From a virus (taxonomy: Duplodnaviria > Caudoviricetes): a stretch of DNA of 59,520 nucleotides. The notes beneath the pieces were generated by a model, which was not told where the DNA came from, searched no databases, and saw only the letters and a list, made by a program, of their open reading frames with translations. How positions within the stretch are numbered: the stretch's first letter is position 1; each line of letters starts with the position of its first letter. Where the stretch lies: the IMG/VR virus record IMGVR_UViG_3300030389_001291, positions 1 through 59,520 of that record; one strand, given 5' to 3'. Below, piece after piece: positions 978-59,519 of this stretch. The translations under genes were made by a program, and so were the position numbers.

Positions 978-1038
978 AAAACTGTATAGAAAATGCGTAT
1001 TTTCTACTGATGATTGCCAAAAGGCATGAAACAGTTTT
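978..1038 (+). ncRNA. Hammerhead ribozyme, type III (HHR6), GUA cleavage after 986
   Basis: AAAACTG-TA/TAGAAAAT-gcgt-ATTTTCTA-CTGATGA-t-TGCC-aaaa-GGCA-t-GAAA-CAGTTTT. All three stems pair around the CUGAUGA/GAAA core. Confidence 0.9.
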
Positions 1039-11011: not shown

Positions 11012-11395
11012 ATGTTAAAAAATATGCTACAAGAAAAGTTGGATAAACGAAAAAGAAAGTGGTGGAATTGGCACAAAAAAAACCCACAAGTTTGGGATAA
11101 GTTTGAGCAATACACACTAGAGGCTATCAATAGTGGTAGGAAAAAGTACTCGCATTGGGCGATAATCAATCGTATTCGTTGGCACAATGAGATAGAAACT
11201 AGAGGTGGAGACTTTAAGATAAGTAATGACTACATCTGTTTCTATGCCCGTTTATTCCACGCTAGACATCCACAATACAAAGACTTCTTTACATTAAAAC
11301 CATTAAAAGAAGAAAAGGATATGGCTATGTTAGAAAGTACCCATGTGAGTAATGGGAATGTTCGCTCTCTTTCTCAATTCAGGAACCATAGCTAA
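11012..11395 (+). CDS. Conserved hypothetical phage protein
   Basis: ORF 10997..11395 with ATG 11012 after a GGGAGG SD. Confidence 0.7.
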   Translation: MLKNMLQEKLDKRKRKWWNWHKKNPQVWDKFEQYTLEAINSGRKKYSHWAIINRIRWHNEIETRGGDFKISNDYICFYARLFHARHPQYKDFFTLKPLKEEKDMAMLESTHVSNGNVRSLSQFRNHS

Positions 11396-14300
11396 TCGCC
11401 TATCTCTTTCTAATTCAAGCCTTTCAAGAGCATCCTGCTTCGCTGTGAGAGACATATTTTTGTTTTGAAGTATTTTATCTCTTCTCTCTCTCCATTTAGC
11501 AAGATACCTTTCCATCTTTCTAACTTGATTTTTAACATTTAACACACCTTGCATACTGTTCCTGTATGCGTAGTATTCATCCATTCTACCTGCTTTTTTA
11601 AGACTGTTAAGAGTTTGTGTCATTCCATCTACTTCATTTCTTAACTCATAGAATTGTTGTTGTAATCCACCTGCTTTGTCTGTATTCATTAACACTCGGT
11701 TAAACAAAGGTATTCTATTTAAACTTACATTACTAGGTAGTATATCTTCTCCTGTTGCTCCTCTTGATGCTACATCTATAACGCTTAATACATGACCTCC
11801 TAATGTTCCTGTATAACCTCTAATAAAATGTTCTGCTTTAGCAGGTGAAATATTTAAAAATTCTGCTATTTCTTTAACTAAATAATTGGTAGTCGGTCTT
11901 GCTTGTAATCCTGGAGCTTTCTTTTGTTGATAGTAGGGAACAATTTCTTGTCCAGTATATGAGTTTCTATTGTATATTACTTCTAATAAAGGTTTTATTA
12001 GTTGAGGCGTATCTATACTTAAAGAAGTTTTTAATCCTCTACGAGTACTTGTTATAAGTTCTTGTCCTGATTTTTTAGAAAAAGCATCATCTCCTAAAGT
12101 AAAATCAAATAATCTTTCTGGAACAGTCTTAAATAAAAATCCTACTTCAAATGGCACAGGAATTTTAACTGCATAATCTTTAAATATTGGTAGTACCCAG
12201 TTATCATCTCTAACTTCTCTTTTAAGATTTTTATATTCATCATCATCATGCATCATCATGTAATAAGCAAAAGTTATTGCTATTAAGATACCAGCATTTG
12301 TAGCCATATTAATTTGTATTCTTCTTTTTACATCATTGATAGTCTCATTCTTACCTAATTTTTCTACTGCTGAATATTGACCTGTACTACTTCTCCATAA
12401 AACATCAAGACCTTGTACTCTTGCATTTAAGAAAGGTATTGCTGCAGTAATAAATCTAAATGCTGGATTAGCACCTCTTCTACCAAAGTTAATTATTTCT
12501 AATGCTTGAAATGCTGCTTCTGATTGTGCCTGTGCTTCTGTAGCTCCTTCTTCTTTTAATTTTTTATATACTGCGTTATATACTGCTAAACGAGTTGCAC
12601 CATCAGATTTGGTAGTTAAATTACCAAGTCCATCCCATAACATAAAGAAAGCTTTTTTAGCAGACATTCCATTTTCATTGGTTAAGCCTGATAGTCGCAT
12701 ATTTCTTTTTAAATATCTTTTGATACTACCTTCATCATTTTGAAAATCATAACCACCTATCACACCAAATTTTTCTAATTCAGCCATATCTTTACCCATA
12801 GATTTAAAAGTATCTATGATAGGTGTATAGTTTGCTCCTGATGTAACCATAGTAGATAGACTATCTCTAAGTAGGTTTACTGCAATAAATCCTGGGTCTC
12901 TAGTAACTGTATCTCTTAGTAAAGAAGATGCTCCTCCAAATATATTTGTTAATACTCCAGTTGGAGTTCCACCTACTTCTTTAAATACATTGAAAGCTTC
13001 TATATTTTCTACTTCATAGTAATTTTTTTGCCCGTTATTAAATACAGCTACAACATCTAAATTATTTTTTATTTTAGGATTTTTAGATATTTCTACAGGA
13101 CTTATTGGTCTTGCTGTACCATATATCTGCATATCTCTAATTAACTTAGCTGTACCATCATTTTTCATTGCAGCAGTTAATATAGCTAATGAATTTCTTG
13201 ATATAGCTTCAATTACATCTACATCTATTTGTTCTTTAGAGCCTTCTATTTTTATACTTAATGGATTGTTAGGCAATGAACCACTAGCTATATTTGGACC
13301 AGCTACAGTATCATCTGTCATTTTTCTGTAGAAAGGATAATAGTCTGAGTTTTCTTTCCAAATTTGAGCAGTACCTCTTGTTTCTATTTGTTTGTCGGCA
13401 CTTAATTCTTTATTTAAAACATTAACCTTATTCATTAATTCTTCATAAGATAACTGTATTAAATCATTCTCATTTTCTTTTGTTATTGCAGATATATCTT
13501 CTGCTAGTTCAGATATGTTTCTTGTTTTACTTAATAAGCCTTTAGCAACTGCAAAGTCTATTAATCTATTATTCCATCTTTGATAGTTTTGATATGCTTC
13601 AACAACTACTGGATAATTAGATTGTATTTTTCTAATATCATTTAAGTTTTTTTCTGTTATTGGTGTTTCAATTTTTCTACCAGATTTATCAAAACCTTGT
13701 TTTCTTTTTAATAAAGCATAGTATTTAAATATACTTTCTAAGTCTGTTTCTGTGCTATATAAAGGTGCTAATATTTGCATTAATCCACCTGTACCAGTAT
13801 CACCTTCAATAAAAGGATTATATCTAGTACTAATACTTAATGGGACTGTATTTACTAATGATAAAGCACCATCTACTGTATCAGTAACATAACCTGTATT
13901 TAACATACCTTGGAATATACCTCTTGCTCTATCCATTAATCTAATAGCAGCCATAGTAGATGTATCAGCAGTATTATTTAATCTTCTTACTTGTTCATTT
14001 TCTTCAGACATTTTTATAATAGCTTTTTGAGCTTTATCTGCTTTGTCTATTATTTGCTCACGCATATTGTTATAAAAATATTGAAGCTTTCCAGAAATAT
14101 TATCTTTAGCTACATCTATAAATCTATAACCCATAGAGTTTTTAGGAGTAGTTCTACTACCTGTACTATTAATACCTTCAACTATAGATGGGTCAACACC
14201 ATCAAGATTTTTTAAGAAAGTAGGAATATCATCTGGAGGCAATGCACCTTCATCTTCTATAAACTCTTTAGCAGCTTCTAAGGCTGTGTCTGAAGCATTT

Positions 14301-17300
14301 AAATTGTAAACAGGTATTCCGCCTCTAGCTGTATTATTAACTGTTTCTATAACTTCTTCTAAAGCTTTATTTGGAGTTTTATTATCTCTTCTACCTCTAC
14401 TAAATAAAGGCACATCATTAATTAAACTAGCTTGTCTATCTTTAGTTGCAGGAGAATATTGATATGTTGGTTTGATGCCACGAAGGTCAGCAAGAACTTC
14501 TGCTTCTTCTTGAAATCCATTATATTCAAATATAGCATCGGCTAATAATTCTTCTGTTGTTTGTTCTCCTTGATATTTATAGAAATCTCCTTTTGCATCT
14601 GCTTCTTCTATTGCTGCATCTAATTCTTCTTGGGACATGATTCCTGAACCAGCCATATCACTTTCAAATTCTGTAATAAAATCTGATTCCATAGCTTTTA
14701 ATAACATAGGCACATAACCTTTTACTTTATTCATAGGAACTTCATATCTAAGTATTTCAGGATTCCATGTTGCACCTTGACTTTGTGCTTTTGTAAATAA
14801 ATTACGACTTATTTTTAATGCTTGTCTGCTATCTAATGTTGTACTTGCAAATAAATCTTGTGGAAGTTGTCCATAGTTTTTAATTTTTTCGCCTTCAGGA
14901 ATATTTAAAGCTCTAAATAAAACTAAATTACCTTTTTTATTTGTAAATTTTTCTAAAAACTTTTTACTAGCTTTTAATAAAGGTCTATTATTTTTACCTT
15001 TAAATGCATCAACTATAGCCATTTTAAGTGGTCCTGGATTATCTCTAGTACCGCTTATTCTACTTTTTATTAATTGGTCTAATATTGCACCAGTTTCAAA
15101 ACGATTATTACTTGCCCAATTAAAAGGAACTTCAATATCTTCTGGTATTAAATTAGTTCTACTAAATGTAGGTAACTCAAATCCTGTATCTTCTCCAAAA
15201 TATACTCTATCAATAAATTCTTTTGCTTCATATAATGAATTTGTTTGGTCCTCAAAAATATCAAATTTACTAAGTGCTTCTAATGCAGTTAAACCTTCTG
15301 GAATTTTTGCAAATTTCCAAGCTGGTCCAGGTAATTCACTATATCTTCCTGTTTCTTCAATAACAAAACCTCTATATTCATAAGCACCAGGTACTATAGT
15401 TCCATCTAAATTTTTAATTTTTTTAGCTGGTCCAGGTTTATATGCTCTACTAAATGTAGGTAAATCTCCAGCTTTTAAATCAGCTATTTTTTGTCTTTGA
15501 TTTTTTATTTCTCTTTCTAATCTTTTAGCACTAGAATCTGTCATAGTGCCTCTTTCTGCATCTAGCTGTGCTTGTTTAAACTCTATACTTGATTCTAAAT
15601 TAGATATTGTTCTTTTTCTTTTTTCTCTATCAAAATAAGCTTGGTCTGCTTCTCTACTAAAAGTAGGTATATCATCTACGGGTTTTATTCTTGGAAAATA
15701 ACCCCATCGTGCCCAACCATTATTACCATCCCAACGAATATCACCTGCTCTTAATTTGTAAGTATGCACCTTTGATGGAGTTACATCAGGCATATCAAAC
15801 ATATCTATAATTCTATCTATCGCTTCAAAGTTTTTTTCTTGTTGTAAATTAACAACTCCTTCTGCTCTTCTTCTAGCTTTATCTGCTTCTCTTATTTCTT
15901 TTCTTGTAATTTTAGATTCATCAACAAGATATTGTGCATCACTTAAAAATGGAGTTATTAAATCTCCTTCTCTCAAATCTCTTGATGGTGCAGCTTGATA
16001 TACAGTTATTTCTGCATTTGGATTATCTTTTATCTCTATAAGTTTATTTATAAACTCACGCTCTTCTTGTTGTTGTATTTCTGTTCTAGCAGTACTAAAT
16101 ATTCTTAAATTGTTATAATCTACATCAGCACCAAAAGTAGAATAACCTTCAGGAGTAAATTCTTCACTAGGCATTTCATTTAAATCATGTGCAGGTGGAC
16201 CATATTGTGCAGGTACATAATCAGCTACATGACCAGATGTTTCATCTCTAGGTCCTCTTTTTGAAAATAAAGGTGTATCTAAATAATCATCTTCTACTTC
16301 ATCTAATACTTTGCCTATTGTTGGTGGTGGTCCTTTATCTAAAAGTTTAGTTGTTCTTATTTTACCTCTAGTTCTTTTACCAATTCTACCAGCTTCAATT
16401 TCTTCAAATATTTGATTTGCATTATCAAATCCAGATATACGCAATGATTCACCAAGTTCAGCAAAAAATTCAATAATTTTATTAAATATACCTTCTGCTC
16501 TTTCTGGTAAAGGAGACTCAACTTTTCTATTTCTATACATTTCTGCAATAGCTTCTTCTGTATAAAACTCATTAATTTCAGCAGGACTACGAAATATAGG
16601 TGCTTTAGTAGGAGTTGGTTGTTGTTCTTCTGCAATAGTAGGTTCATTAATTCTTTTAGCTCTATCAAAATAAGTTTCTTTTTTATCAAAAGCTATTTTA
16701 TCTACAGATTTTGGAACTCTAACTTTTTTAACTTGTTTTCTTAAATAGTCATATTCTTTTTCATTAATTAAATCTTTTTCTCTTAGAGCATGGATTAATT
16801 CATGGTCTAATATTTCATTTAATTTTCTTTGTATATCAGCATCTGTTGATGTGCCATTAGGATTAACAGCATTTAAAGATATAAATATAATATCTGTCTG
16901 TCTATCATATTCTGCCTTTACAGTTTTATCTCTACCTACAAATCTAATACTACCATCTGCTGTTTGTTCTAAAGCACCTGTAGATAATATTTCATCACTA
17001 ACAATAACACCTGTTTCTTTTAATCCTACTTTTGCTAATCTTTGTCTTAACTCTTGTGCAAATTTATTTATTCTTCCTTTTTCTACAGCTTCAGCAAAAT
17101 CTATAGTTCTTTTTGCTTCTTCTACAGGAGGTAGTTGTTGAGATTCTTTATTGTTTTGTTCTTGTTCTAATTGTGCTATTGCTTCTGAAGATAATTTACC
17201 TTCAGTAACAAGTCTATTAACAAATTCTTCTGTAGTTTCATTAAAAGCATCTGCTCTTCTATCTATTTTTTCTTGGAAATTATCTGCAATTTTATATTGA

Positions 17301-19306
17301 TTGCCTTTAACTTTTTCTGCTCTACCACTATAAACTAAATCTTCAAAGAATTGTGGGTCTTTTATACCTATCATTTTAAGACTTTGTTTATTAAATAAAG
17401 CTTTACTATTTTTTAAATTAGATACTGTTTCTGACACATCTTGTGCAGAATAAATTCTAGGCTGTAAATTTGGAAAATCTATTTTAGTATTAAATCTAGG
17501 TAATGATTGTATTCTAGCTAATAACAATTCTTTTTGAGGTTTAGTCATCTTTGCAAAAGAAGATGTACCAGTTAATCTTTTTGCTGCATATTGAAATGCA
17601 GCATCATTTACATCAATATTTATATTTTTTGAATTACCTATTTCTTTTAATCTTTTTATTGTTACATTAGTTTTATTGTTGTTTTCTATAACGGAAGGAT
17701 ATTTAGAATTTTTTGCAACTTGTTGAGACATATCTGTTATAAAAGTATTAAAGTCTTTTGCAGATAAAAGTTGTTTAACTTCTGTAAGTGTATAACTTTC
17801 TTTTAATGGTAGTTTTTTATATTTTTTATTTTTGCCTAACAATACATTTTGCATTGCTTGTACATTTTTTAAAGATGAATCATAGGGCACAATCTCTTTA
17901 AGACTAGCAGTAGTAGTATCTGTGTCCATAACTGTTTGTGCTAGTTCATAAGCAGAAGAACTTTTATTTAAACCTAATATATATAAATCATTATCTAATA
18001 TTTGTTTTTGTAAATTAACTTCAAAATCTTTTAACAGTTGTTCTTTTTTATTTATAGCATCAACTTCTTTATTAAAAGTATCAACTTCACCTAGATTATT
18101 ATCTATAAGGCTAAATGTATTATTTTGATTTTTTCTTATTTGTAATTGAGGAGGTGTAGAGGTTTCTACAGGTTTGGGAACATTATCTAATAATGGAAGG
18201 AGTAATGTTTCTTGAACATTAATATCTTGTGTTGGGTCGGCTATATCTATAACACCTTGTTGTTGTGCTATATCAAATGTTTTAGTTCTTAATAAGTCTT
18301 GTTTTTTCTTTTCTGCTCGTTTTTCTTGTTCTGCTCTATATTCTGATGCTATACCTCTTCTACCGCCATATCCTTGTATAACAGTATTTAATAAACCACC
18401 AGCAAAACCACCTACAGTAAAGTCATCAAATAGACTTTCTCCTATAGGAAGTTCATCGCTATAAAAACCTCTAGCATTTAAATCTTGTAATAGTCCTGCT
18501 GTACTTTCTTGAAGTCCTTCTTGAACAAAACCTGCTGTAAAGTTTTTAGCATGAGCAAATATTTTTTGAGATGTTGTTGCATCTCTTAATGCACTTTTAG
18601 GTATACTTCTAAAAAAATTAAATATAGGTAAAGCTTCTGTTGCACCAATAACAGATGATGTTAATGTACTTAAATTTTCAGCAAAGAATCCTGGTTTTTC
18701 TTCTCCATATACTTCTTCTGCTATATCCATCATATCTGCATTTTGAGACATATAAACAGATGAACCTAAACCTGCTGGATATAAAAATGGTTTTGATGTT
18801 AAAAATTTTGCATTAAAGTTTAAAGGATTTACTTTACCAAAACCTTTTGTACCAGGTTTAAATACTGGCATATATTTAGTACTTTTACCTCTTGATGCAG
18901 CACCTAATGCAACAAAAGGTATTAATGAGCCTACTGCTTGACCAGCTTTAGTACTAAAAGCATCTGCATATCTAGGGTCTCTATATCCTGCAATATTTTG
19001 AGCTATTCTTTCTTCTGTAGCTTTCATTTTATCTGCAAGTCTAACTAATGGACCTTCGCCTAATGAATCTTGTGCTAGTGCTTCAATAGGACCTCTTAAT
19101 CCCATAAGAGTAGTTTGTGCTATACCTCTAGGAACACTTTTTAGTGCTTCTATACTTTGTCCTATGAATGTGCCTTCTGTATATTCTTTTGCTACATCAG
19201 GACCATATTCAGGTATTTGTGATAATGCATAACCAACTTCTGCTCTAAGATTAGGGTCATCAGGAATGTATATTTCTCTTCCATCTGGTAAAGTAAAAGT
19301 TTTCAT
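11330..19306 (-). CDS. Large polyvalent internal virion (ejection) protein with a HExxH peptidase-like module, ART-like modules and an LPD38-like C-terminus
   Basis: 2658 aa and last gene of the late operon. Contains HELIH, FRAL/ASTT/EAEVL and C-terminal RDDNWVLP...KIPVPFEVG. Confidence 0.75.
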   Translation of the reverse strand: MKTFTLPDGREIYIPDDPNLRAEVGYALSQIPEYGPDVAKEYTEGTFIGQSIEALKSVPRGIAQTTLMGLRGPIEALAQDSLGEGPLVRLADKMKATEERIAQNIAGYRDPRYADAFSTKAGQAVGSLIPFVALGAASRGKSTKYMPVFKPGTKGFGKVNPLNFNAKFLTSKPFLYPAGLGSSVYMSQNADMMDIAEEVYGEEKPGFFAENLSTLTSSVIGATEALPIFNFFRSIPKSALRDATTSQKIFAHAKNFTAGFVQEGLQESTAGLLQDLNARGFYSDELPIGESLFDDFTVGGFAGGLLNTVIQGYGGRRGIASEYRAEQEKRAEKKKQDLLRTKTFDIAQQQGVIDIADPTQDINVQETLLLPLLDNVPKPVETSTPPQLQIRKNQNNTFSLIDNNLGEVDTFNKEVDAINKKEQLLKDFEVNLQKQILDNDLYILGLNKSSSAYELAQTVMDTDTTTASLKEIVPYDSSLKNVQAMQNVLLGKNKKYKKLPLKESYTLTEVKQLLSAKDFNTFITDMSQQVAKNSKYPSVIENNNKTNVTIKRLKEIGNSKNINIDVNDAAFQYAAKRLTGTSSFAKMTKPQKELLLARIQSLPRFNTKIDFPNLQPRIYSAQDVSETVSNLKNSKALFNKQSLKMIGIKDPQFFEDLVYSGRAEKVKGNQYKIADNFQEKIDRRADAFNETTEEFVNRLVTEGKLSSEAIAQLEQEQNNKESQQLPPVEEAKRTIDFAEAVEKGRINKFAQELRQRLAKVGLKETGVIVSDEILSTGALEQTADGSIRFVGRDKTVKAEYDRQTDIIFISLNAVNPNGTSTDADIQRKLNEILDHELIHALREKDLINEKEYDYLRKQVKKVRVPKSVDKIAFDKKETYFDRAKRINEPTIAEEQQPTPTKAPIFRSPAEINEFYTEEAIAEMYRNRKVESPLPERAEGIFNKIIEFFAELGESLRISGFDNANQIFEEIEAGRIGKRTRGKIRTTKLLDKGPPPTIGKVLDEVEDDYLDTPLFSKRGPRDETSGHVADYVPAQYGPPAHDLNEMPSEEFTPEGYSTFGADVDYNNLRIFSTARTEIQQQEEREFINKLIEIKDNPNAEITVYQAAPSRDLREGDLITPFLSDAQYLVDESKITRKEIREADKARRRAEGVVNLQQEKNFEAIDRIIDMFDMPDVTPSKVHTYKLRAGDIRWDGNNGWARWGYFPRIKPVDDIPTFSREADQAYFDREKRKRTISNLESSIEFKQAQLDAERGTMTDSSAKRLEREIKNQRQKIADLKAGDLPTFSRAYKPGPAKKIKNLDGTIVPGAYEYRGFVIEETGRYSELPGPAWKFAKIPEGLTALEALSKFDIFEDQTNSLYEAKEFIDRVYFGEDTGFELPTFSRTNLIPEDIEVPFNWASNNRFETGAILDQLIKSRISGTRDNPGPLKMAIVDAFKGKNNRPLLKASKKFLEKFTNKKGNLVLFRALNIPEGEKIKNYGQLPQDLFASTTLDSRQALKISRNLFTKAQSQGATWNPEILRYEVPMNKVKGYVPMLLKAMESDFITEFESDMAGSGIMSQEELDAAIEEADAKGDFYKYQGEQTTEELLADAIFEYNGFQEEAEVLADLRGIKPTYQYSPATKDRQASLINDVPLFSRGRRDNKTPNKALEEVIETVNNTARGGIPVYNLNASDTALEAAKEFIEDEGALPPDDIPTFLKNLDGVDPSIVEGINSTGSRTTPKNSMGYRFIDVAKDNISGKLQYFYNNMREQIIDKADKAQKAIIKMSEENEQVRRLNNTADTSTMAAIRLMDRARGIFQGMLNTGYVTDTVDGALSLVNTVPLSISTRYNPFIEGDTGTGGLMQILAPLYSTETDLESIFKYYALLKRKQGFDKSGRKIETPITEKNLNDIRKIQSNYPVVVEAYQNYQRWNNRLIDFAVAKGLLSKTRNISELAEDISAITKENENDLIQLSYEELMNKVNVLNKELSADKQIETRGTAQIWKENSDYYPFYRKMTDDTVAGPNIASGSLPNNPLSIKIEGSKEQIDVDVIEAISRNSLAILTAAMKNDGTAKLIRDMQIYGTARPISPVEISKNPKIKNNLDVVAVFNNGQKNYYEVENIEAFNVFKEVGGTPTGVLTNIFGGASSLLRDTVTRDPGFIAVNLLRDSLSTMVTSGANYTPIIDTFKSMGKDMAELEKFGVIGGYDFQNDEGSIKRYLKRNMRLSGLTNENGMSAKKAFFMLWDGLGNLTTKSDGATRLAVYNAVYKKLKEEGATEAQAQSEAAFQALEIINFGRRGANPAFRFITAAIPFLNARVQGLDVLWRSSTGQYSAVEKLGKNETINDVKRRIQINMATNAGILIAITFAYYMMMHDDDEYKNLKREVRDDNWVLPIFKDYAVKIPVPFEVGFLFKTVPERLFDFTLGDDAFSKKSGQELITSTRRGLKTSLSIDTPQLIKPLLEVIYNRNSYTGQEIVPYYQQKKAPGLQARPTTNYLVKEIAEFLNISPAKAEHFIRGYTGTLGGHVLSVIDVASRGATGEDILPSNVSLNRIPLFNRVLMNTDKAGGLQQQFYELRNEVDGMTQTLNSLKKAGRMDEYYAYRNSMQGVLNVKNQVRKMERYLAKWRERRDKILQNKNMSLTAKQDALERLELERDRRLAMVPELRKRANIPITHMGTF

Positions 19307-54211: not shown

Positions 54212-54691
54212 CTATTGTTTGTTAAGTAATGCTTCTATTCGCTCTTCAATATCTCGCTCGACTTCATCACTTGTTCTCGCTTCTTTGGTCTCAACTACAT
54301 CACTAAATAACGATACGCTCTTACCCAGTAATTCCAATGCTCGAACTCTTGATGCATCGCTATCCGCTTCTTTGCTTTCTCTATATAACTGCTCGATAAC
54401 ATAGTTTCTTGTTCTGAGCGATGTAGCAACTGATGACTGCTCTTTTCTTTGGATAGCCTTTTGTATGCTTAGTGCTATCTTAGGGTTAGCGACTAAACGA
54501 CTTGCTTCGACTTCTACCCATTTTGGTATCTTCCCAGTCTTGGTTAATTCAACATCATAAACCTTTGCATATGCTTCTTTATAACTACCTAACTTTCCCT
54601 TGATAATTTCATCCACAAACTGGCGTTGCTTAATCGTTAAATCTTTATCTTGTTTTACTACTTTTAATTTTGGTTTCTCTTCTTTGCTCAT
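54212..54691 (-). CDS. terS: Terminase small subunit
   Basis: LTIKQRQFV..EAYAKVY..EASRL.ANPKI HTH and RVRALELLGK. Confidence 0.8.
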   Translation of the reverse strand: MSKEEKPKLKVVKQDKDLTIKQRQFVDEIIKGKLGSYKEAYAKVYDVELTKTGKIPKWVEVEASRLVANPKIALSIQKAIQRKEQSSVATSLRTRNYVIEQLYRESKEADSDASRVRALELLGKSVSLFSDVVETKEARTSDEVERDIEERIEALLNKQ

Positions 54692-54778
54692 ACTGAAATC
54701 TTATCTCATGTATGGAGAAAATATAATGCTCACAAAACGATAGCAAAAATAGTGAACTGGTAAATAATTAATATGGTG

Positions 54779-54807
54779 TTGAATATGATGTTTACATCGC
54801 TTATACT
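54779..54807 (+). promoter_or_regulatory. Sigma70 promoter of the early operon
   Basis: TTGAAT-17 nt-TATACT with AT-rich upstream sequence. Confidence 0.7.
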
Positions 54808-54813
54808 GTTCTC

Positions 54814-55126
54814 AACAAAGACCAAAACGATTATGTCTCTAAACTGTAGCCAACCACCCGCAAGGGTCTCGAAAGAGGTAAGGTTGAAACCTAAGTCCTA
54901 GGATTAAGAGGTTAAACTTAATCAGACTTATTGGAAAGAAAAGGTTAGTCCAGTCCAATAATGAATTCGCTTCAAGGTAGCTAGTGGGAAACAATAGGAT
55001 AGTTAAAGTCGTGATGACTTCAGCGAGACCCCCAAGACCAAAAGGAAATTATCTTTTTGCCATTGATACAAAAATTGATATGGACTTACTTAAAGATTTA
55101 TAACTTTTGGGACTGCTCCAACAGTC
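54814..55126 (+). ncRNA. Structured ~310-nt leader RNA released by HHR1
   Basis: GNRA-capped hairpins (ACCC-GCAA-GGGT, CTC-GAAA-GAG) in a junction, several 7-8 bp helices, and no SD-linked ORF. Confidence 0.6.
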
Positions 55127-55184
55127 TATGAATTGACATACTGAAGAGCATCCTATTTTGGGATGCAAGAAACTGACCTTGGAG
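55116..55184 (+). ncRNA. Hammerhead ribozyme, type III (HHR1), GUC cleavage after 55126; core has an AA insertion
   Basis: CAG-TC/TATG-aattga-CATA-CTGAAGA-GCATCC..GGATGC-aa-GAAA-CTG. Stem III can be extended by CTCCAA/TTGGAG. Confidence 0.7.
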
Positions 55185-55188
55185 GGTC
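55175..55188 (+). promoter_or_regulatory. RBS hairpin with UUGGAG loop
   Basis: GACC-TTGGAG-GGTC, with ATG at 55197. Confidence 0.8.
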
Positions 55189-55196
55189 TTAGAATT

Positions 55197-55484
55197 ATGG
55201 AAAAAAATAAAGAACAAATAATATTTTTTATTGACCATATAAATACTTTTAGCGATATAGAAAAAGAACTTCATCTAACTGGAGCAAAATATATCTCAAT
55301 GGAACATTCAAAAAGATATGAATGTTTAAAAGTGAAATTTGAAGTTGATGATTATCATCAAAGAAATAAATTAATTAAACTTGCCTTAGAACACGACATT
55401 GATACTAAGATAATTTTTGATGATAGATTTACTCTTAACCAAATTCACGAAAAAGTATTTGATAGATATATCAGAACTTATTAA
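55197..55484 (+). CDS. Hypothetical early protein (95 aa)
   Basis: ORF 55158..55484 with the start reassigned to the ATG after the SD. Confidence 0.75.
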   Translation: MEKNKEQIIFFIDHINTFSDIEKELHLTGAKYISMEHSKRYECLKVKFEVDDYHQRNKLIKLALEHDIDTKIIFDDRFTLNQIHEKVFDRYIRTY

Positions 55485-55544
55485 ACCGACTGATGAGCCA
55501 ATGAAATTTTGGCGAAACTAGATAAGAAATTATCTAGTCTTGGT
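55485..55544 (+). ncRNA. Hammerhead ribozyme, type I (HHR2), GUC cleavage after 55539
   Basis: ACCGA-CTGATGA-GCCAA..TTGGC-GAAA-CTAGATAA-gaaa-TTATCTAG-TC/TTGGT, with a fully canonical core. Confidence 0.93.
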
Positions 55545-55576: not shown

Positions 55577-55592
55577 AATTCTTGGAGGAATT
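55577..55592 (+). promoter_or_regulatory. RBS hairpin with UUGGAG loop
   Basis: AATTC-TTGGAG-GAATT, with ATG at 55597. Confidence 0.75.
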
Positions 55593-55596
55593 AATT

Positions 55597-56667
55597 ATGT
55601 TTAAACCTAGTGAAGCAAAAAAATCATGCCTACATATTTTGAAAGGAAGTAATATTCCATTCTTAATTGGTGGTACTGGTGTTGGTAAATCCGCTATCGT
55701 TAAAGAGATTGCGGAAGAACTTGCGAATGGTAGAACTTTAACTGATAACATCAATCCAAAAAAAGATGAATTTGGTTTTATCTCTTTTAGATTGGGATTA
55801 GTTGAAAGTATTGATTTAGGCGGACTGCCACACATTGATGAAGAAACTGGTATTCAGAAAAAAGCAATGTTGGGTAATTTGCCAAGAGGTGGCGAGGGTC
55901 TATTTTTCTTGGATGAATTTGCACAAGCTCATTCATCAGTCCAAGCAACGATAGGTCAATTACTCGACCCAAAAGGAAAAAACGAAGAGCGAAAAATTGG
56001 CGAATATGTTTTTCCTAGTGGGTGGAAAATTGTCCTAGCGGGTAATAGACATACTGATAGAAGTGGAGCAAATAAAATTCTTAGGCATTGCCAAGATAGA
56101 ACTACTGCAATTCAGTTTACTCACGATGTAAACGACTGGTTAGACTGGGCTGATAGCAACGATGTTGACTTGAATGTCCAAGGTTTAATTAGATTTATGC
56201 CACAACTACTTTGGGACTTCGACCCAAAATCTAATGACCCACAACCAAGTCCAAGAAGTTGGGTAAGGTTAAGCGATACACTAAAAACTAACCCGCCTAA
56301 AGAGTTGAGACAAAAACTCTTCGAGGGCGATGTTGGTCAAGAGTGTGCCATTGAATTGATGAATTTTATTTCACTTCAAAATGATGTGCCAAACATATCA
56401 AAAATATGTAAAGGCGATGAAGTAGAATTGATTGATGAAGCGGGTCTTTGTTATGCGACTACGATTGCTCTAACTACAGCGATTGCACAAGCGGATGACA
56501 AAAACATATATGACTACTTTGAAAATGCTTTAAATTATGTGAAGCAATTTTCGACTGTAGAATTTTCTATATTCTTTGTTAGAAAAATTACTGGACTTAG
56601 AAACGAACTCAAAGAGTGCGATGTATATTCTAAATTCAAAGTTGATAACCAAGATTTAGAAATCTAA
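55597..56667 (+). CDS. MoxR-like AAA+ ATPase
   Basis: Walker A GGTGVGKS, Walker B LFFLDE, LAGNR and PSPRSW. Confidence 0.88.
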   Translation: MFKPSEAKKSCLHILKGSNIPFLIGGTGVGKSAIVKEIAEELANGRTLTDNINPKKDEFGFISFRLGLVESIDLGGLPHIDEETGIQKKAMLGNLPRGGEGLFFLDEFAQAHSSVQATIGQLLDPKGKNEERKIGEYVFPSGWKIVLAGNRHTDRSGANKILRHCQDRTTAIQFTHDVNDWLDWADSNDVDLNVQGLIRFMPQLLWDFDPKSNDPQPSPRSWVRLSDTLKTNPPKELRQKLFEGDVGQECAIELMNFISLQNDVPNISKICKGDEVELIDEAGLCYATTIALTTAIAQADDKNIYDYFENALNYVKQFSTVEFSIFFVRKITGLRNELKECDVYSKFKVDNQDLEI

Positions 56668-56724
56668 ATTTACATGGCGAGTTAAGGAATATTTATTATT
56701 TACTGGTAAATATTCCTTTCCCGC

Positions 56725-56785
56725 TAATTCTAATATCAAGATGTGTGTCTTGGCTGATGATTAGGAAACTATGAAATTAGAATTA
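56725..56785 (+). ncRNA. Hammerhead ribozyme, type III (HHR3), AUA cleavage after 56735
   Basis: TAATTCTAA-TA/TCAAGAT-gtgt-GTCTTGG-CTGATGA-t-TAG-gaaa-CTA-t-GAAA-TTAGAATTA. Confidence 0.88.
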
Positions 56786-56798
56786 TTAATCATAAACC

Positions 56799-56812
56799 GA
56801 CCTTGGAGGGTC
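56799..56812 (+). promoter_or_regulatory. RBS hairpin with UUGGAG loop
   Basis: GACC-TTGGAG-GGTC, with ATG at 56820. Confidence 0.8.
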
Positions 56813-56819
56813 AAGTATT

Positions 56820-57785
56820 ATGAAAAAAGATAATGTAAATACTCTATCTGAAAATGCTACTTTGGTGCGACTTACAACGAAGCATCCAAGCGGTATTAAA
56901 TCAGATAAGAATTTAAAAGAGGGTTTAGCAATAGACCAAAATGCACATGAAAATTCGCTTCATGTCGCTAAGTATATTTTTGGTAAAGAAACGAATAAAT
57001 ATTTTCGTAGAATTATCAATCAGTTTAGGAATAATTATTTTTATCCTTTAACTGTTCCTTGGGATGATAATACTAGCGACTACGAGGGAAAAGTTTTAAG
57101 CGGGTGGAGATTATGTCCTAACCAAGAACTGGATAACCTTGTTGATAAAGTGAATGAAGCTAAGGCGGATTTTGATAAAGAAGTTAAACAATTTCTTGAT
57201 AGCTACGATAATTTAATCGAGCAAAATAAATACGCTCTTGGTAATGCATTTAAGTTGTCTGATTATCCTACTAAAGAAGAGATTGAGCATAAGTTTAAAT
57301 TTGATTTTGAACTTGGCACAGTCCCACAATTTAGTAGCAACGATATTCGTATTGGTGTATCTGAAAAACTTCGCAAGAAGATTGAGAATGATGCATTAAA
57401 AAGGGCAACCAAAAATGTAGAAGCGATAACTAGAACAACAGTCGAAACTCTTTTGGAAAGTGTTGAGCATTTAGCTGACAAGCTAAAATCATACGACCCA
57501 AAAACTAAAGGTGGAGGTTTCTTTAAGAAATCATCATTCGATAAGTTGAGACAATTTTTAGATACGCTCCCAAGTATCAATTCTGACATTCTAGGGAATG
57601 ACAAAAAGATAACGGAAGCACATCAAAATTTAGTTAGCGTTTTTGCAAAAATTAATGATGTCGATGCTCTTCGCGAAGATGATGATTACACAGCCAACAA
57701 AAGAAAACAGTTGGCTGATGATTTAACTTCGAGTGTCGATGATTTAAAAGGCGGATTTTTAGATAATATGTATTCTAAAAAGTAG
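56820..57785 (+). CDS. DUF3150-like helical protein of the AAA/vWA module
   Basis: 321 aa with TVPW..GWRLCP and FKLSDYP, located between the ATPase and vWA genes. Family assignment is tentative. Confidence 0.65.
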   Translation: MKKDNVNTLSENATLVRLTTKHPSGIKSDKNLKEGLAIDQNAHENSLHVAKYIFGKETNKYFRRIINQFRNNYFYPLTVPWDDNTSDYEGKVLSGWRLCPNQELDNLVDKVNEAKADFDKEVKQFLDSYDNLIEQNKYALGNAFKLSDYPTKEEIEHKFKFDFELGTVPQFSSNDIRIGVSEKLRKKIENDALKRATKNVEAITRTTVETLLESVEHLADKLKSYDPKTKGGGFFKKSSFDKLRQFLDTLPSINSDILGNDKKITEAHQNLVSVFAKINDVDALREDDDYTANKRKQLADDLTSSVDDLKGGFLDNMYSKK

Positions 57786-57837
57786 TCTGATGAGTTGCGG
57801 GGAAAAAACTATTTACCAGTAAATATTTTTTCTTCGC

Positions 57838-57892
57838 TTCTGTCTTAGGATGTAGTCCTAACTGATGATGACTGAAAACAGTCGAAACAGAA
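57838..57892 (+). ncRNA. Hammerhead ribozyme, type III (HHR4), GUC cleavage after 57844
   Basis: TTCTG-TC/TTAGGA-tgtag-TCCTAA-CTGATGA-t-GACTG-aaaa-CAGTC-GAAA-CAGAA. Confidence 0.9.
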
Positions 57893-57904
57893 ACTCATAA
57901 ATAA

Positions 57905-57920
57905 AATTCTTGGAGGGATT
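57905..57920 (+). promoter_or_regulatory. RBS hairpin with UUGGAG loop
   Basis: AATTC-TTGGAG-GGATT, with ATG at 57925. Confidence 0.75.
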
Positions 57921-57924
57921 AATT

Positions 57925-59310
57925 ATGATGAATAGTGAAGAGCGAATAATAAAAGCTAGAGCAAAACTTATGAAAGGTAATGTTGGAATGGCAACCATGT
58001 TATTAAAACTTACTTTGATTGAGAACAATGAGCGATGCCAAACAATGGCTACTGACGGCGTTAATATTTATTGGAATGATGAATTTGTTAAATCAATAAC
58101 AGATGAGGAAATCCAAGCGGTATTGGTACACGAAGCTAGTCATGTTATTTGGGAACATCCGCTTAGAAAAGGAAATCGAAATCACGAACTTTGGAACATA
58201 GCTACTGACTATGTAATTAACTCTTGGATAGCATACGATTTACATATGCAATTACCCGAGGAGGGATTACTTGATAGGAAGTATCACGGACAAAGTGCGG
58301 AGCAAGTTTATAGAACTTTATCGAATGATGAAGATGCTTTAAACGATGCTCTTGAAGATTTAAAATCAAAATCTGATAATGGCGATTCTGATTCTGATTC
58401 TGATTCTGATTCTCAAAATGGTACTGGCGATTCTGATTCTGATTCAGATTCAGATTCAGATTCAAATTCTGATTCTGATTCTAGTTCTGACTCAAACGAT
58501 ACTGCTAATGGAAATGGTAAAGGCAAGTCTCTTGAAGAGAAACTTGCTGATGTTCAATTACCAAGTGGCGAAGTATGGATGCCAACGAATGATGAGGGCA
58601 AAGAATTATCTCCTAGTGAAATGGCTGACTTACAAGAACAGTTGCAAAGAACTATTGCCATGGCTGACAAATTGGAAGGTATGAGCGATGAGGGATGCGG
58701 TGGTTTTGGCGATGCCATGAAACAACTTAATGAAAGTTATGTTGACTGGGTAGATGTGATGCGAGACTTATTGCAAAGTGCTATTGCTACCAACCCCACA
58801 TGGACAAGATTGAATAAAAGACATTCTTGGAGGGGGATTAACTTGCCAAGCAAAGACAAAGAGCCACAAGGTGGCGAACTTGCGATTGCTATAGATACAA
58901 GCGGAAGCGTATGCCAAGAGGAACTCAATGTTTTTGCTACTGAAATCAATGCCATTGCAGAAGATTGCGGTATCAATAAAATTAGAGTTTGCTATTGCGA
59001 TACTACTGTCCGCAAAAATTCTAAAGGCGAATGGTGGGATGAGTACGACTTAGATTGTGAAGAGTTGGAACTCGTTGCCCGTGGTGGCGGTGGAACTAAT
59101 TTTGACCCGCCTTTTAACTTATTCAATGACTATACTGATAATACGGATGAAGTGATAGCGTTTATCTACTTTACGGATGCTTACGGATATTGTTCTGAAG
59201 AAGTTGAGCCTAATGTCCCAGTAATATGGGCGTTAAGTGGCGGAGAAAATTACTATAGCGATGAACTCCCTTTTGGCGAAAAAGTTGCTATCGATTTCTC
59301 TAGGTTTTAA
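57925..59310 (+). CDS. Metallopeptidase-vWA protein (DUF2201-like)
   Basis: TMATDG, HEASH (HExxH), WNIATDYVIN, an acidic linker, MIDAS DTSGS, GGGTNF and FTD. Confidence 0.88.
   Translation: MMNSEERIIKARAKLMKGNVGMATMLLKLTLIENNERCQTMATDGVNIYWNDEFVKSITDEEIQAVLVHEASHVIWEHPLRKGNRNHELWNIATDYVINSWIAYDLHMQLPEEGLLDRKYHGQSAEQVYRTLSNDEDALNDALEDLKSKSDNGDSDSDSDSDSQNGTGDSDSDSDSDSDSNSDSDSSSDSNDTANGNGKGKSLEEKLADVQLPSGEVWMPTNDEGKELSPSEMADLQEQLQRTIAMADKLEGMSDEGCGGFGDAMKQLNESYVDWVDVMRDLLQSAIATNPTWTRLNKRHSWRGINLPSKDKEPQGGELAIAIDTSGSVCQEELNVFATEINAIAEDCGINKIRVCYCDTTVRKNSKGEWWDEYDLDCEELELVARGGGGTNFDPPFNLFNDYTDNTDEVIAFIYFTDAYGYCSEEVEPNVPVIWALSGGENYYSDELPFGEKVAIDFSRF
58384..58492 (+). repeat. Coding GATTCT/GATTCA hexamer repeat (Asp-Ser linker)
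   Basis: Tandem DS codons within the vWA gene. Confidence 0.85.
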
Positions 59311-59375
59311 TCGCAAATTGGTGTGGGGGAAAAATTATTTACCAGTAAATATTTTTTCTCCCCTCCGTATCGAAT

Positions 59376-59430
59376 TTCTGATATCAAGATGTGTGTCTTG
59401 GCTGATGATTGCAAAAGCATGAAATCAGAA
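59376..59430 (+). ncRNA. Hammerhead ribozyme, type III (HHR5), AUA cleavage after 59383
   Basis: TTCTGA-TA/TCAAGAT-gtgt-GTCTTGG-CTGATGA-t-TGC-aaaa-GCA-t-GAAA-TCAGAA. Stem I is identical to HHR3, while stems II and III co-vary. Confidence 0.88.
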
Positions 59431-59519
59431 TTTTAACCTTAACTGTCCTTGGAGGGACAATTTATTATGCAAAATAATCATAATAAAAAAACGGGGTCTC
59501 CAGTTTCTACTGTAGTTTC
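59422..59519. repeat. Terminal overlap (copy of 1-98)
   Basis: Exact match to the contig start. Confidence 0.95.

Follow-up and report, generated by a model that had tools for sequence, protein, structure and literature searches.

The window, as we call the whole stretch of DNA analyzed, is the complete record of an uncultivated virus, 59,520 bases long, in which bases 1–98 repeat the record end. As the record is circularly permuted, the operon that begins at about position 55,100 leaves the end of the window and resumes at position 1. On the plus strand, a conserved non-coding region (54700–55110) is followed by the element HHR1 (55111–55188), gene 1, HHR2, an AAA ATPase gene, HHR3, the gene of a DUF3150 protein, HHR4, the gene of a DUF2201 metallopeptidase/VWA protein, HHR5, gene 5 and HHR6, after which two further small genes and a terminator-like hairpin form the tail of the operon. 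The gene context with its AAA ATPase, DUF3150 and DUF2201 proteins resembles that of genes associated with hammerhead and twister ribozymes. Gene 1 differs among relatives though the HHR1 module upstream of it stays constant. A search of the phage collection for similar phage records gave no match at distant sensitivity. Elsewhere in this 59.5-kb phage genome, an ORF of 2,658 amino acids occupies 11330–19306 on the minus strand. Gene 1 and the hammerheads downstream of HHR1 are as follows.

55197–55484, plus strand: gene 1 of the operon, 95 amino acids, without a Pfam family; start ATG at 55197.
55485–55544, plus strand: HHR2, candidate type I hammerhead; RAGATH-1-hammerhead at 27.5 bits, below the gathering score of 56.3, the core being read from the sequence.
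56726–56784, plus strand: HHR3, type III hammerhead-like, with U/U at 10.1/11.1; recognized by eye, no Rfam match at E ≤ 10.
57837–57893, plus strand: HHR4, candidate type III hammerhead; Hammerhead_3 at 32.4 bits, E = 5.8e-4, below the gathering score of 48.5.
59372–59433, plus strand: HHR5, HHR3-like; recognized by eye, no Rfam match at E ≤ 10.
978–1038, plus strand: HHR6, HHR3-like, in the continuation of the operon past the record end; no Rfam match at E ≤ 10.

The bases of HHR1 can be assigned to the parts of a hammerhead and, alternatively, to two hairpins.

55111–55126, plus strand: P0, an alternative 5' hairpin GACUG-CUCCAA-CAGUC (GACUG 55111–55115, CUCCAA 55116–55121, CAGUC 55122–55126) read from the sequence; its 3' end is the predicted cleavage site.
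55116–55121, plus strand: anti-SD CUCCAA, which is the P0 loop in one fold and, in the other, the 5' side of the helix that extends stem III.
55122–55126, plus strand: stem III 5' strand CAG, then U16.1 and C17; cleavage is predicted after 55126 from the hammerhead consensus.
55127–55140, plus strand: stem I hairpin UAUG-AAUUGA-CAUA; all alignment cells paired.
55141–55147, plus strand: core CUGAAGA (C3–A9), invariant save N7 and partly fixed by the search pattern.
55148–55166, plus strand: stem II of 6 bp with its loop; 99.8% of alignment cells paired.
55167–55168, plus strand: AA inserted between C11.1 and G12; all 84 sequences have it, and the search pattern did not demand it.
55169–55175, plus strand: GAAA (G12–A15.1, 55169–55172) and the stem III 3' strand CUG (55173–55175), from sequence and alignment.
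55175–55188, plus strand: RBS hairpin GACC-UUGGAG-GGUC, whose loop holds the Shine-Dalgarno sequence (SD) UUGGAGG (55179–55185).

The core of stem III consists of CAG (55122–55124) paired with CUG (55173–55175) plus the A15.1–U16.1 pair; an ACC bulge (55176–55178) then precedes UUGGAG (55179–55184) and GGUC (55185–55188). The earlier note had described a short stem III that extends across the ACC bulge by pairing of CUCCAA with UUGGAG, the SD of gene 1, and had pointed out that the same bases could form two separate hairpins. Every base is as it claimed, and both hairpins, P0 and the RBS hairpin, exist in the sequence; the two extra A (55167–55168) between stem II and GAAA are absent from its description. 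The minimum free energy fold of the 95 nt from 55105 to 55199 is exactly the secondary structure of a hammerhead in which the SD is paired; its −29.4 kcal/mol compares with −18.3 ± 3.1 kcal/mol for shuffled sequences (z = −3.5), 1 of 200 of which folded as well. The bare word CTCCAA is not rare in the window (39 matches vs. 26.4 expected), and support for its role thus comes from its position and conservation and not from the word. Two further descriptions of the region were rejected: the 14-pair outer extension (GACU/GGUC) is present only in the window and its closest relatives and is lost where the stems of the RBS hairpin differ; and P0 is not the loop-closed stem III of a permuted hammerhead, as no GAAA lies 5' of it.

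We started the collection of the family from relatives of the AAA gene, which gave 26 viral loci, and aligned the HHR1 region in 24 of them. A family pattern fixing only AGUC, loop I and CUGA..GAG matched 116 viral stretches. Each match was trimmed to run from 22 nt 5' of the cleavage site through the start codon, an SD-like word and a start codon being required; the 94 longer unique strings were reduced to 83 unique ones after trimming, the rest being merged or dropped, and with the window 84 sequences were aligned. Many of the 84 are close relatives, and they represent about 10 independent lineages rather than 84. In prokaryote genomes, the family pattern gave seven matches, one of which (L161) has a complementary stem I; the others look like chance.

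Across the 84 sequences, 99.7% of the alignment cells in stems I and II and the base of stem III are paired, in comparison with 22–42% in slid controls, and the covariation score is 0.364 vs. 0.129 for shuffled data, with none of 500 shuffles reaching 0.364. Changes on both sides are found in three of the four stem I pairs and three of the six stem II pairs. The base of stem III is nearly invariant (99.2% of cells paired): the A15.1–U16.1 pair and the next one form in all 84 members, the following one in 82 and the fourth in 63. The type III hammerhead core, C3 U4 G5 A6 N7 G8 A9 ... G12 A13 A14, is complete and invariant in 84 of 84 sequences save for N7, where A, U, C or an insertion of two bases occurs. 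The search pattern fixed CUGA and GAG; the invariance of GAAA and of the inserted AA is independent of it. The pair at 16.1 and 15.1 is U–A throughout, position 17 is a non-G nucleotide (C17 being fixed by the pattern, as AGTC), and three helices with covariation surround the core, stem III being open, as expected of a type III hammerhead. As the search pattern included loop I (AAUURA), the conservation of this loop is uninformative on a tertiary contact between stems I and II. Rfam models gave no match over 55111–55188 at the gathering score or at E ≤ 10; for the whole operon there was no match at gathering scores, and at E ≤ 10 only HHR4 and HHR2 were matched, weakly. Because the core, GAAA and AA are invariant, the free position N7 varies and the stems covary, we consider HHR1 to show the marks of a selectively maintained hammerhead that departs from the consensus by its inserted AA.

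To quantify the pairing with the SD, we searched the 19 nt 5' of the base of stem III for complementarity to each member's own SD region, counting perfect Watson–Crick runs, as allowing G–U pairs gave spurious upstream matches. The conservation of this pairing in relatives had been named in the earlier note as a check that could refute its reading, and the pairing is kept: runs of at least five pairs are present in 61 of the 84 members (shuffled leaders: mean 9.4, maximum 18) and runs of at least six in 50 (mean 2.2, maximum 8). SD-like words in the same zone are rare (7/84). The wording of the helix is specific to clades, with CUCCAA:UUGGAG, UCCUCC:GGAGGA and UCCUCCU:AGGAGGA; as the core of the SD cannot vary, strict covariation is unavailable for this helix. 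The anti-SD abuts the 5' strand of stem III in most members, with a gap of 2–3 nt on the 5' side and a linker of 0–13 nt on the 3' side, and in some, e.g., L068 and L134, stem III and the SD helix form one continuous helix. In one clade of higher GC content, a hairpin of its own, clear of stem III, carries the anti-SD in its loop, and in several members CUCCAA stands opposite AUGGAG, giving five pairs and a mismatch. The anti-SD is absent from 23 of the 84 members, mostly of one clade, and the ribozyme is thus not dependent on it.

A P0-type hairpin ending exactly at the predicted cleavage site is found in 58 of the 84 members (shuffles: mean 9.1, maximum 20), and 57 of these 58 have CUCCAA, CCUCCA or CCUCC as the loop. 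The fifth pair of the hairpin is G–C in 27 members, A–U in 11, U–A in 5 and C–G in 10; a sixth pair is present in 10 members. The pair-5 nucleotide that also takes part in the hammerhead fold belongs there to the fourth pair of stem III, which forms in just 63 of the 84. The retention of P0 in 58 of 84 members and the four Watson–Crick types at its fifth pair argue that P0 itself is under selection. Its formation buries U16.1 and C17 and excludes stem III. For the second hairpin the test is weaker: 71 of the 84 members can place the SD in a hairpin loop, against a control mean of 45 and maximum of 57. The design with the SD in a hairpin loop precedes all six operon genes.

We computed nearest-neighbour energies on excised segments, with tertiary structure and the leader of about 300 nt left out; CUUUUGG of the leader is able to pair elsewhere. 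In the window, the hammerhead fold with its extensions is predicted at −21.7 kcal/mol and the fold with P0 and the RBS hairpin at −19.4 kcal/mol. After cleavage, the bound products are merely 4.4 kcal/mol better than the products folded separately into hairpins, so the two hairpins are predicted to pay for the release. In the 58 members with P0, the energy of the hammerhead-forced fold minus that of the P0-forced fold has a median of 0.0 and lies within 3 kcal/mol in 43. The predicted unpaired probability of the SD in the window rises from 0.00–0.33 before cleavage to 0.77–1.0 after it; for the SD core alone, the values are 0.33 and 1.0. In the family, the 61 members that have an anti-SD go from 0.30 to 0.70, with 44 gaining more than 0.2 and 1 falling, and the 23 that lack one go from 0.56 to 0.71. 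Two proposals of the earlier note, that the active fold hides the SD and that loss of the 5' fragment frees it, are thereby borne out at the level of prediction: the cleavage-competent fold pairs the SD, in agreement with the minimum free energy fold, and the predicted accessibility rises both in the window and in the family. Among the six operon hammerheads, the predicted masking is unique to HHR1 (0.00 to 0.77), the other five going from 0.57–0.79 to 0.75–0.82; HHR2 (0.71 to 0.78) and HHR3 (0.78 to 0.78) are unmasked from the outset.

Upstream of P0, the 427 bases before the predicted cleavage site (54700–55126) have counterparts in relatives at 67–98% identity and hold two candidate elements.

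54779–54807, plus strand: sigma-70-like promoter candidate TTGAAT-17-TATACT, the sole site of a scan over 54600–55300.
54815–55110, plus strand: conserved, probably structured leader RNA directly 5' of P0, without an Rfam family.

The promoter candidate alone is not significant, as shuffled sequences gave a mean of 2.6 sites; A-T-A-x-T of its second hexamer is conserved in all 12 aligned relatives. RNAalifold predicts leader helices with compensatory changes, among them CCAAAAG (55045–55051) with CUUUUGG (55104–55110), which has one G–C flip and ends right at P0. The strongly conserved blocks of the leader include CCAAAACGAUUAUG...GUAGCCAAC and CCAAAAGGAAAUUAUCUUUUUGCC, and the Rfam search of the leader gave no family match. 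In other clades, a related structured RNA directly adjoins the anti-SD hairpin P0. Given the conserved upstream region and the promoter-like site at 54779–54807, a 5' product of about 310 nt is more likely than the hairpin alone. Rather than releasing a hairpin of 16 nt, HHR1 would separate from the operon mRNA a structured leader, about 310 nt long, whose 3' end is P0. Another promoter, TTGATA-18-TATAAC directly 5' of P0, is less likely: it fails the rule of the scan, its TATAAC lies within the conserved helix with one compensatory flip, and the P0-abutting RNA of other clades has no such sequence.

Family members of several clades (L051, L054, L065, L102, L124 and others) have ...CGAAAC/U and 5–7 nt before the anti-SD hairpin, with CUGAUGA about 110 nt further 5'; these clades may carry a second ribozyme-like or structured RNA in tandem upstream of the hairpin. 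The Rfam search gave a single weak Hammerhead_3 match, elsewhere in L124. The word ACYRGTAAATA occurs 16 times in the window against 0.38 expected (positions 839, 1755, 1843, 2096, 2152, 3038, 10976, 31135, 39244, 54756, 56697–56712, 57810–57825 and 59336–59351). Three copies are full palindromes in long G/C-clamped hairpins closely 5' of HHR3, HHR4 and HHR5, and one copy lies closely 5' of the leader promoter; the word may be an operator or promoter motif, or the 3'-end hairpin of processed mRNAs.

The ribosome-binding sites (RBSs) of the operon resemble that of gene 1. TTGGAGG followed by 3–12 nt and ATG occurs eight times in the window (seven distinct sites), six of which are the operon RBSs; the UUGGAGG sites are at 28–48, 1056–1075, 55179–55199, 55582–55599, 56803–56822, 57910–57930 and 59449–59469, with one more at 1959–1979 on the minus strand. 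In all six operon RBSs, UUGGAGG lies in the loop of a short hairpin, and the hairpin stems covary. As to the hammerhead-like motifs, HHR3, HHR5 and HHR6 have a stem II of 3–4 bp flanked by U and U (10.1/11.1) and UA as the cleavage dinucleotide, and their stem II covaries among the copies, HHR3 having UAG/CUA and HHR5 UGC/GCA.

Our preferred reading, to which we give a probability of about 0.5, is that HHR1 is a conserved variant type III hammerhead placed between a structured leader RNA and gene 1 of an operon with six hammerheads, and that the fold able to cleave masks the SD, which a hairpin loop presents once cleavage has taken place. The analysis shows the sequence, its conservation and covariation and the predicted energetics, whereas catalytic activity, the start of transcription, the sequence of folding events and any influence on translation are inferences. 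Stem III would have only 3–4 pairs of its own and be closed by the helix of the anti-SD CUCCAA with the SD UUGGAG, which would hide the SD. P0, whose loop is the anti-SD and whose stem takes in the nucleotides of the cleavage site, and the RBS hairpin, whose loop carries the SD, would compete with this closing helix. Self-cleavage, predicted after C55126, would break the chain, the two hairpins would then repay most of the lost pairing, and the leader would be released. The resulting mRNA would carry a 5'-OH and a 5' stem-loop and show its SD in a hairpin loop, so that cleavage would be an irreversible conversion of an SD-masked precursor to a translatable mRNA. Several points weigh against such gating. 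The inserted AA beside G12 is foreign to the consensus core, and no Rfam hammerhead model matched HHR1 at E ≤ 10; fast constitutive cleavage would gate nothing beyond a short delay; and there are the 23 of 84 members without an anti-SD and the several in which CUCCAA faces AUGGAG.

Part of the same evidence can be read as a structural clamp only, in which the helix of anti-SD and SD serves to stabilize stem III, itself very short, by means of a sequence that does not change with the gene cassette. The function would then be processing, i.e., removal of the leader and a 5'-OH end, and any effect on translation incidental and brief. The unchanged module in front of a varying first gene fits this account, as do the three invariant pairs of stem III proper with a fourth in 63 of 84 members, and the other five hammerheads and the clade lacking the anti-SD are predicted to process without masking; plain processing of long phage transcripts was also proposed by Perreault et al. 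(2011; PMC3088659). A mere clamp leaves unexplained the strict retention of the competing P0, with its four pair types, and the placement of the anti-SD in the loop of a hairpin not overlapping stem III in the clade of L047, L122 and L129, and we regard it as unlikely. The near isoenergetic folds of the 58 P0 members would also suit a ribozyme that is itself conditional: P0 would be an off-state hiding U16.1 and C17, the SD would open it by pairing with its loop as a toehold, and an SD-bound 30S subunit or the state of the leader would decide on cleavage, so that translation or a signal gates cleavage and not the reverse. P0 is transcribed first, its 5' ACUG repeats the ACUG of the stem III 3' strand, and a conserved structured RNA adjoins it in several clades; the leader, however, has no Rfam family match. 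We hold this order of events to be rather improbable, and equally so its fuller form, a natural conditional ribozyme made of HHR1, P0 and the leader of about 300 nt, in which the leader state or an SD-bound ribosome picks the P0 fold (uncut) or the hammerhead fold (cut) and the anti-SD loop of the released leader touches the six UUGGAG loops of the operon.

The last element, suggested in the earlier note, can be considered on its own, with the released leader as a trans-acting anti-SD RNA whose P0 loop pairs with the six operon UUGGAG loops and tunes translation. All six operon RBSs are UUGGAGG, and TTGGAG is found in none of the 43 other long phage ORFs, which mostly use AGGAG-type sites. UUGGAG also tracks the loop: among the loci listed, the 10 distinct ones with a CUCCAA loop have UUGGAG at 39 of 41 operon RBSs, whereas the four with a UCCUCCG loop have it at none of 29, 22 being AUGGAG. 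This contrast spans just two clades and could go back to one event in evolution or to common ancestry; moreover, pairing with UCCUCCG does not account for the conserved A of AUGGAG, one leader would have to serve six targets and the pairing comprises just six base pairs. Shared descent of the RBS module would explain the operon-wide match to the P0 loop equally well, and action in trans appears a long shot. Finally, HHR1 might no longer cleave and serve as a structured translational operator, or the inverted words might be a DNA-level site, e.g., an operator. A non-cleaving HHR1 would be in keeping with the AA insertion in the core and the lack of an Rfam match; against it, the catalytic positions are all invariant, the stems covary and the free position N7 varies. 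A DNA-level site is at odds with an inverted repeat that is confined to the SD/anti-SD word while the flanking hairpin stems change independently. We find this last pair of explanations highly improbable.

The proposed masking of the SD in HHR1 before cleavage and its display afterwards can be set against known ribozymes. According to the available part of Perreault et al. (2011; PMC3088659), type III hammerheads are clustered between prophage genes and flank single genes, and in a halovirus the cleavage site of a hammerhead coincides with the mapped 5' end of a polycistronic transcript. HHR1 is like the prophage type III hammerheads described there in its core, its three-helix junction, its GUC site and the occurrence of several per operon; it is unlike them in the AA between stem II and G12, the 4-bp stem I with the conserved AAUURA loop, the SD closing stem III and the competing hairpin that covers the cleavage site. 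The same part of the article reports that some insertions in the hammerhead core are tolerated and some not; the AA insertion of HHR1 does not appear in it, and the terms "Shine" and "ribosome binding" are absent from its main text (PMC3088659). The RAGATH-1 hammerhead (RF03152) is weakly matched by the neighbouring HHR2 (27.5 bits) and not by HHR1. In the full-text literature, for which coverage was partial so that an earlier description is possible, we found no natural hammerhead that pairs with an SD. According to a 2019 review (PMC6765202), it is yet to be defined what purpose such ribozymes serve in bacteria and phages. Here, in more than 100 phage sequences, the closing helix of a ribozyme coincides with the RBS, and a covarying hairpin competes for the cleavage site. 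On these predictions, cutting probably uncovers the RBS of gene 1, which gives phage ribozymes a testable role and would replace a vague "processing" by a concrete mechanism open to mutation, cleavage coupled to the unmasking of translation.

The closest parallels are engineered. In twister switches, the SD is sequestered in a stem of a 5' UTR ribozyme and freed by cleavage, active ribozymes giving 5- to about 100-fold more reporter than inactive ones (PMC5052635), and a tobramycin hammerhead sensor is likewise described as an engineered ribozyme switch masking the RBS (PMC12192606). HHR1 would be like these switches, its SD being predicted to lie in a stem of a 5' UTR ribozyme and to be liberated from it by cleavage. 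The engineered switches are designed, usually with an aptamer, and have no product hairpins, whereas HHR1 is natural and has two conserved competitor hairpins. An engineered ribozyme switch that masks the RBS was reportedly made by Wieland and Hartig in 2008. RiboJ-type insulators consist of a hammerhead followed by a hairpin exposing the RBS, and the ribozyme removes the upstream leader; unlike the pairing predicted for HHR1, their RBS is not known to pair within the ribozyme. HHR1 would be a natural counterpart of hand-built synthetic-biology designs, a compact part that joins a ribozyme, a release hairpin and a hairpin displaying the RBS.
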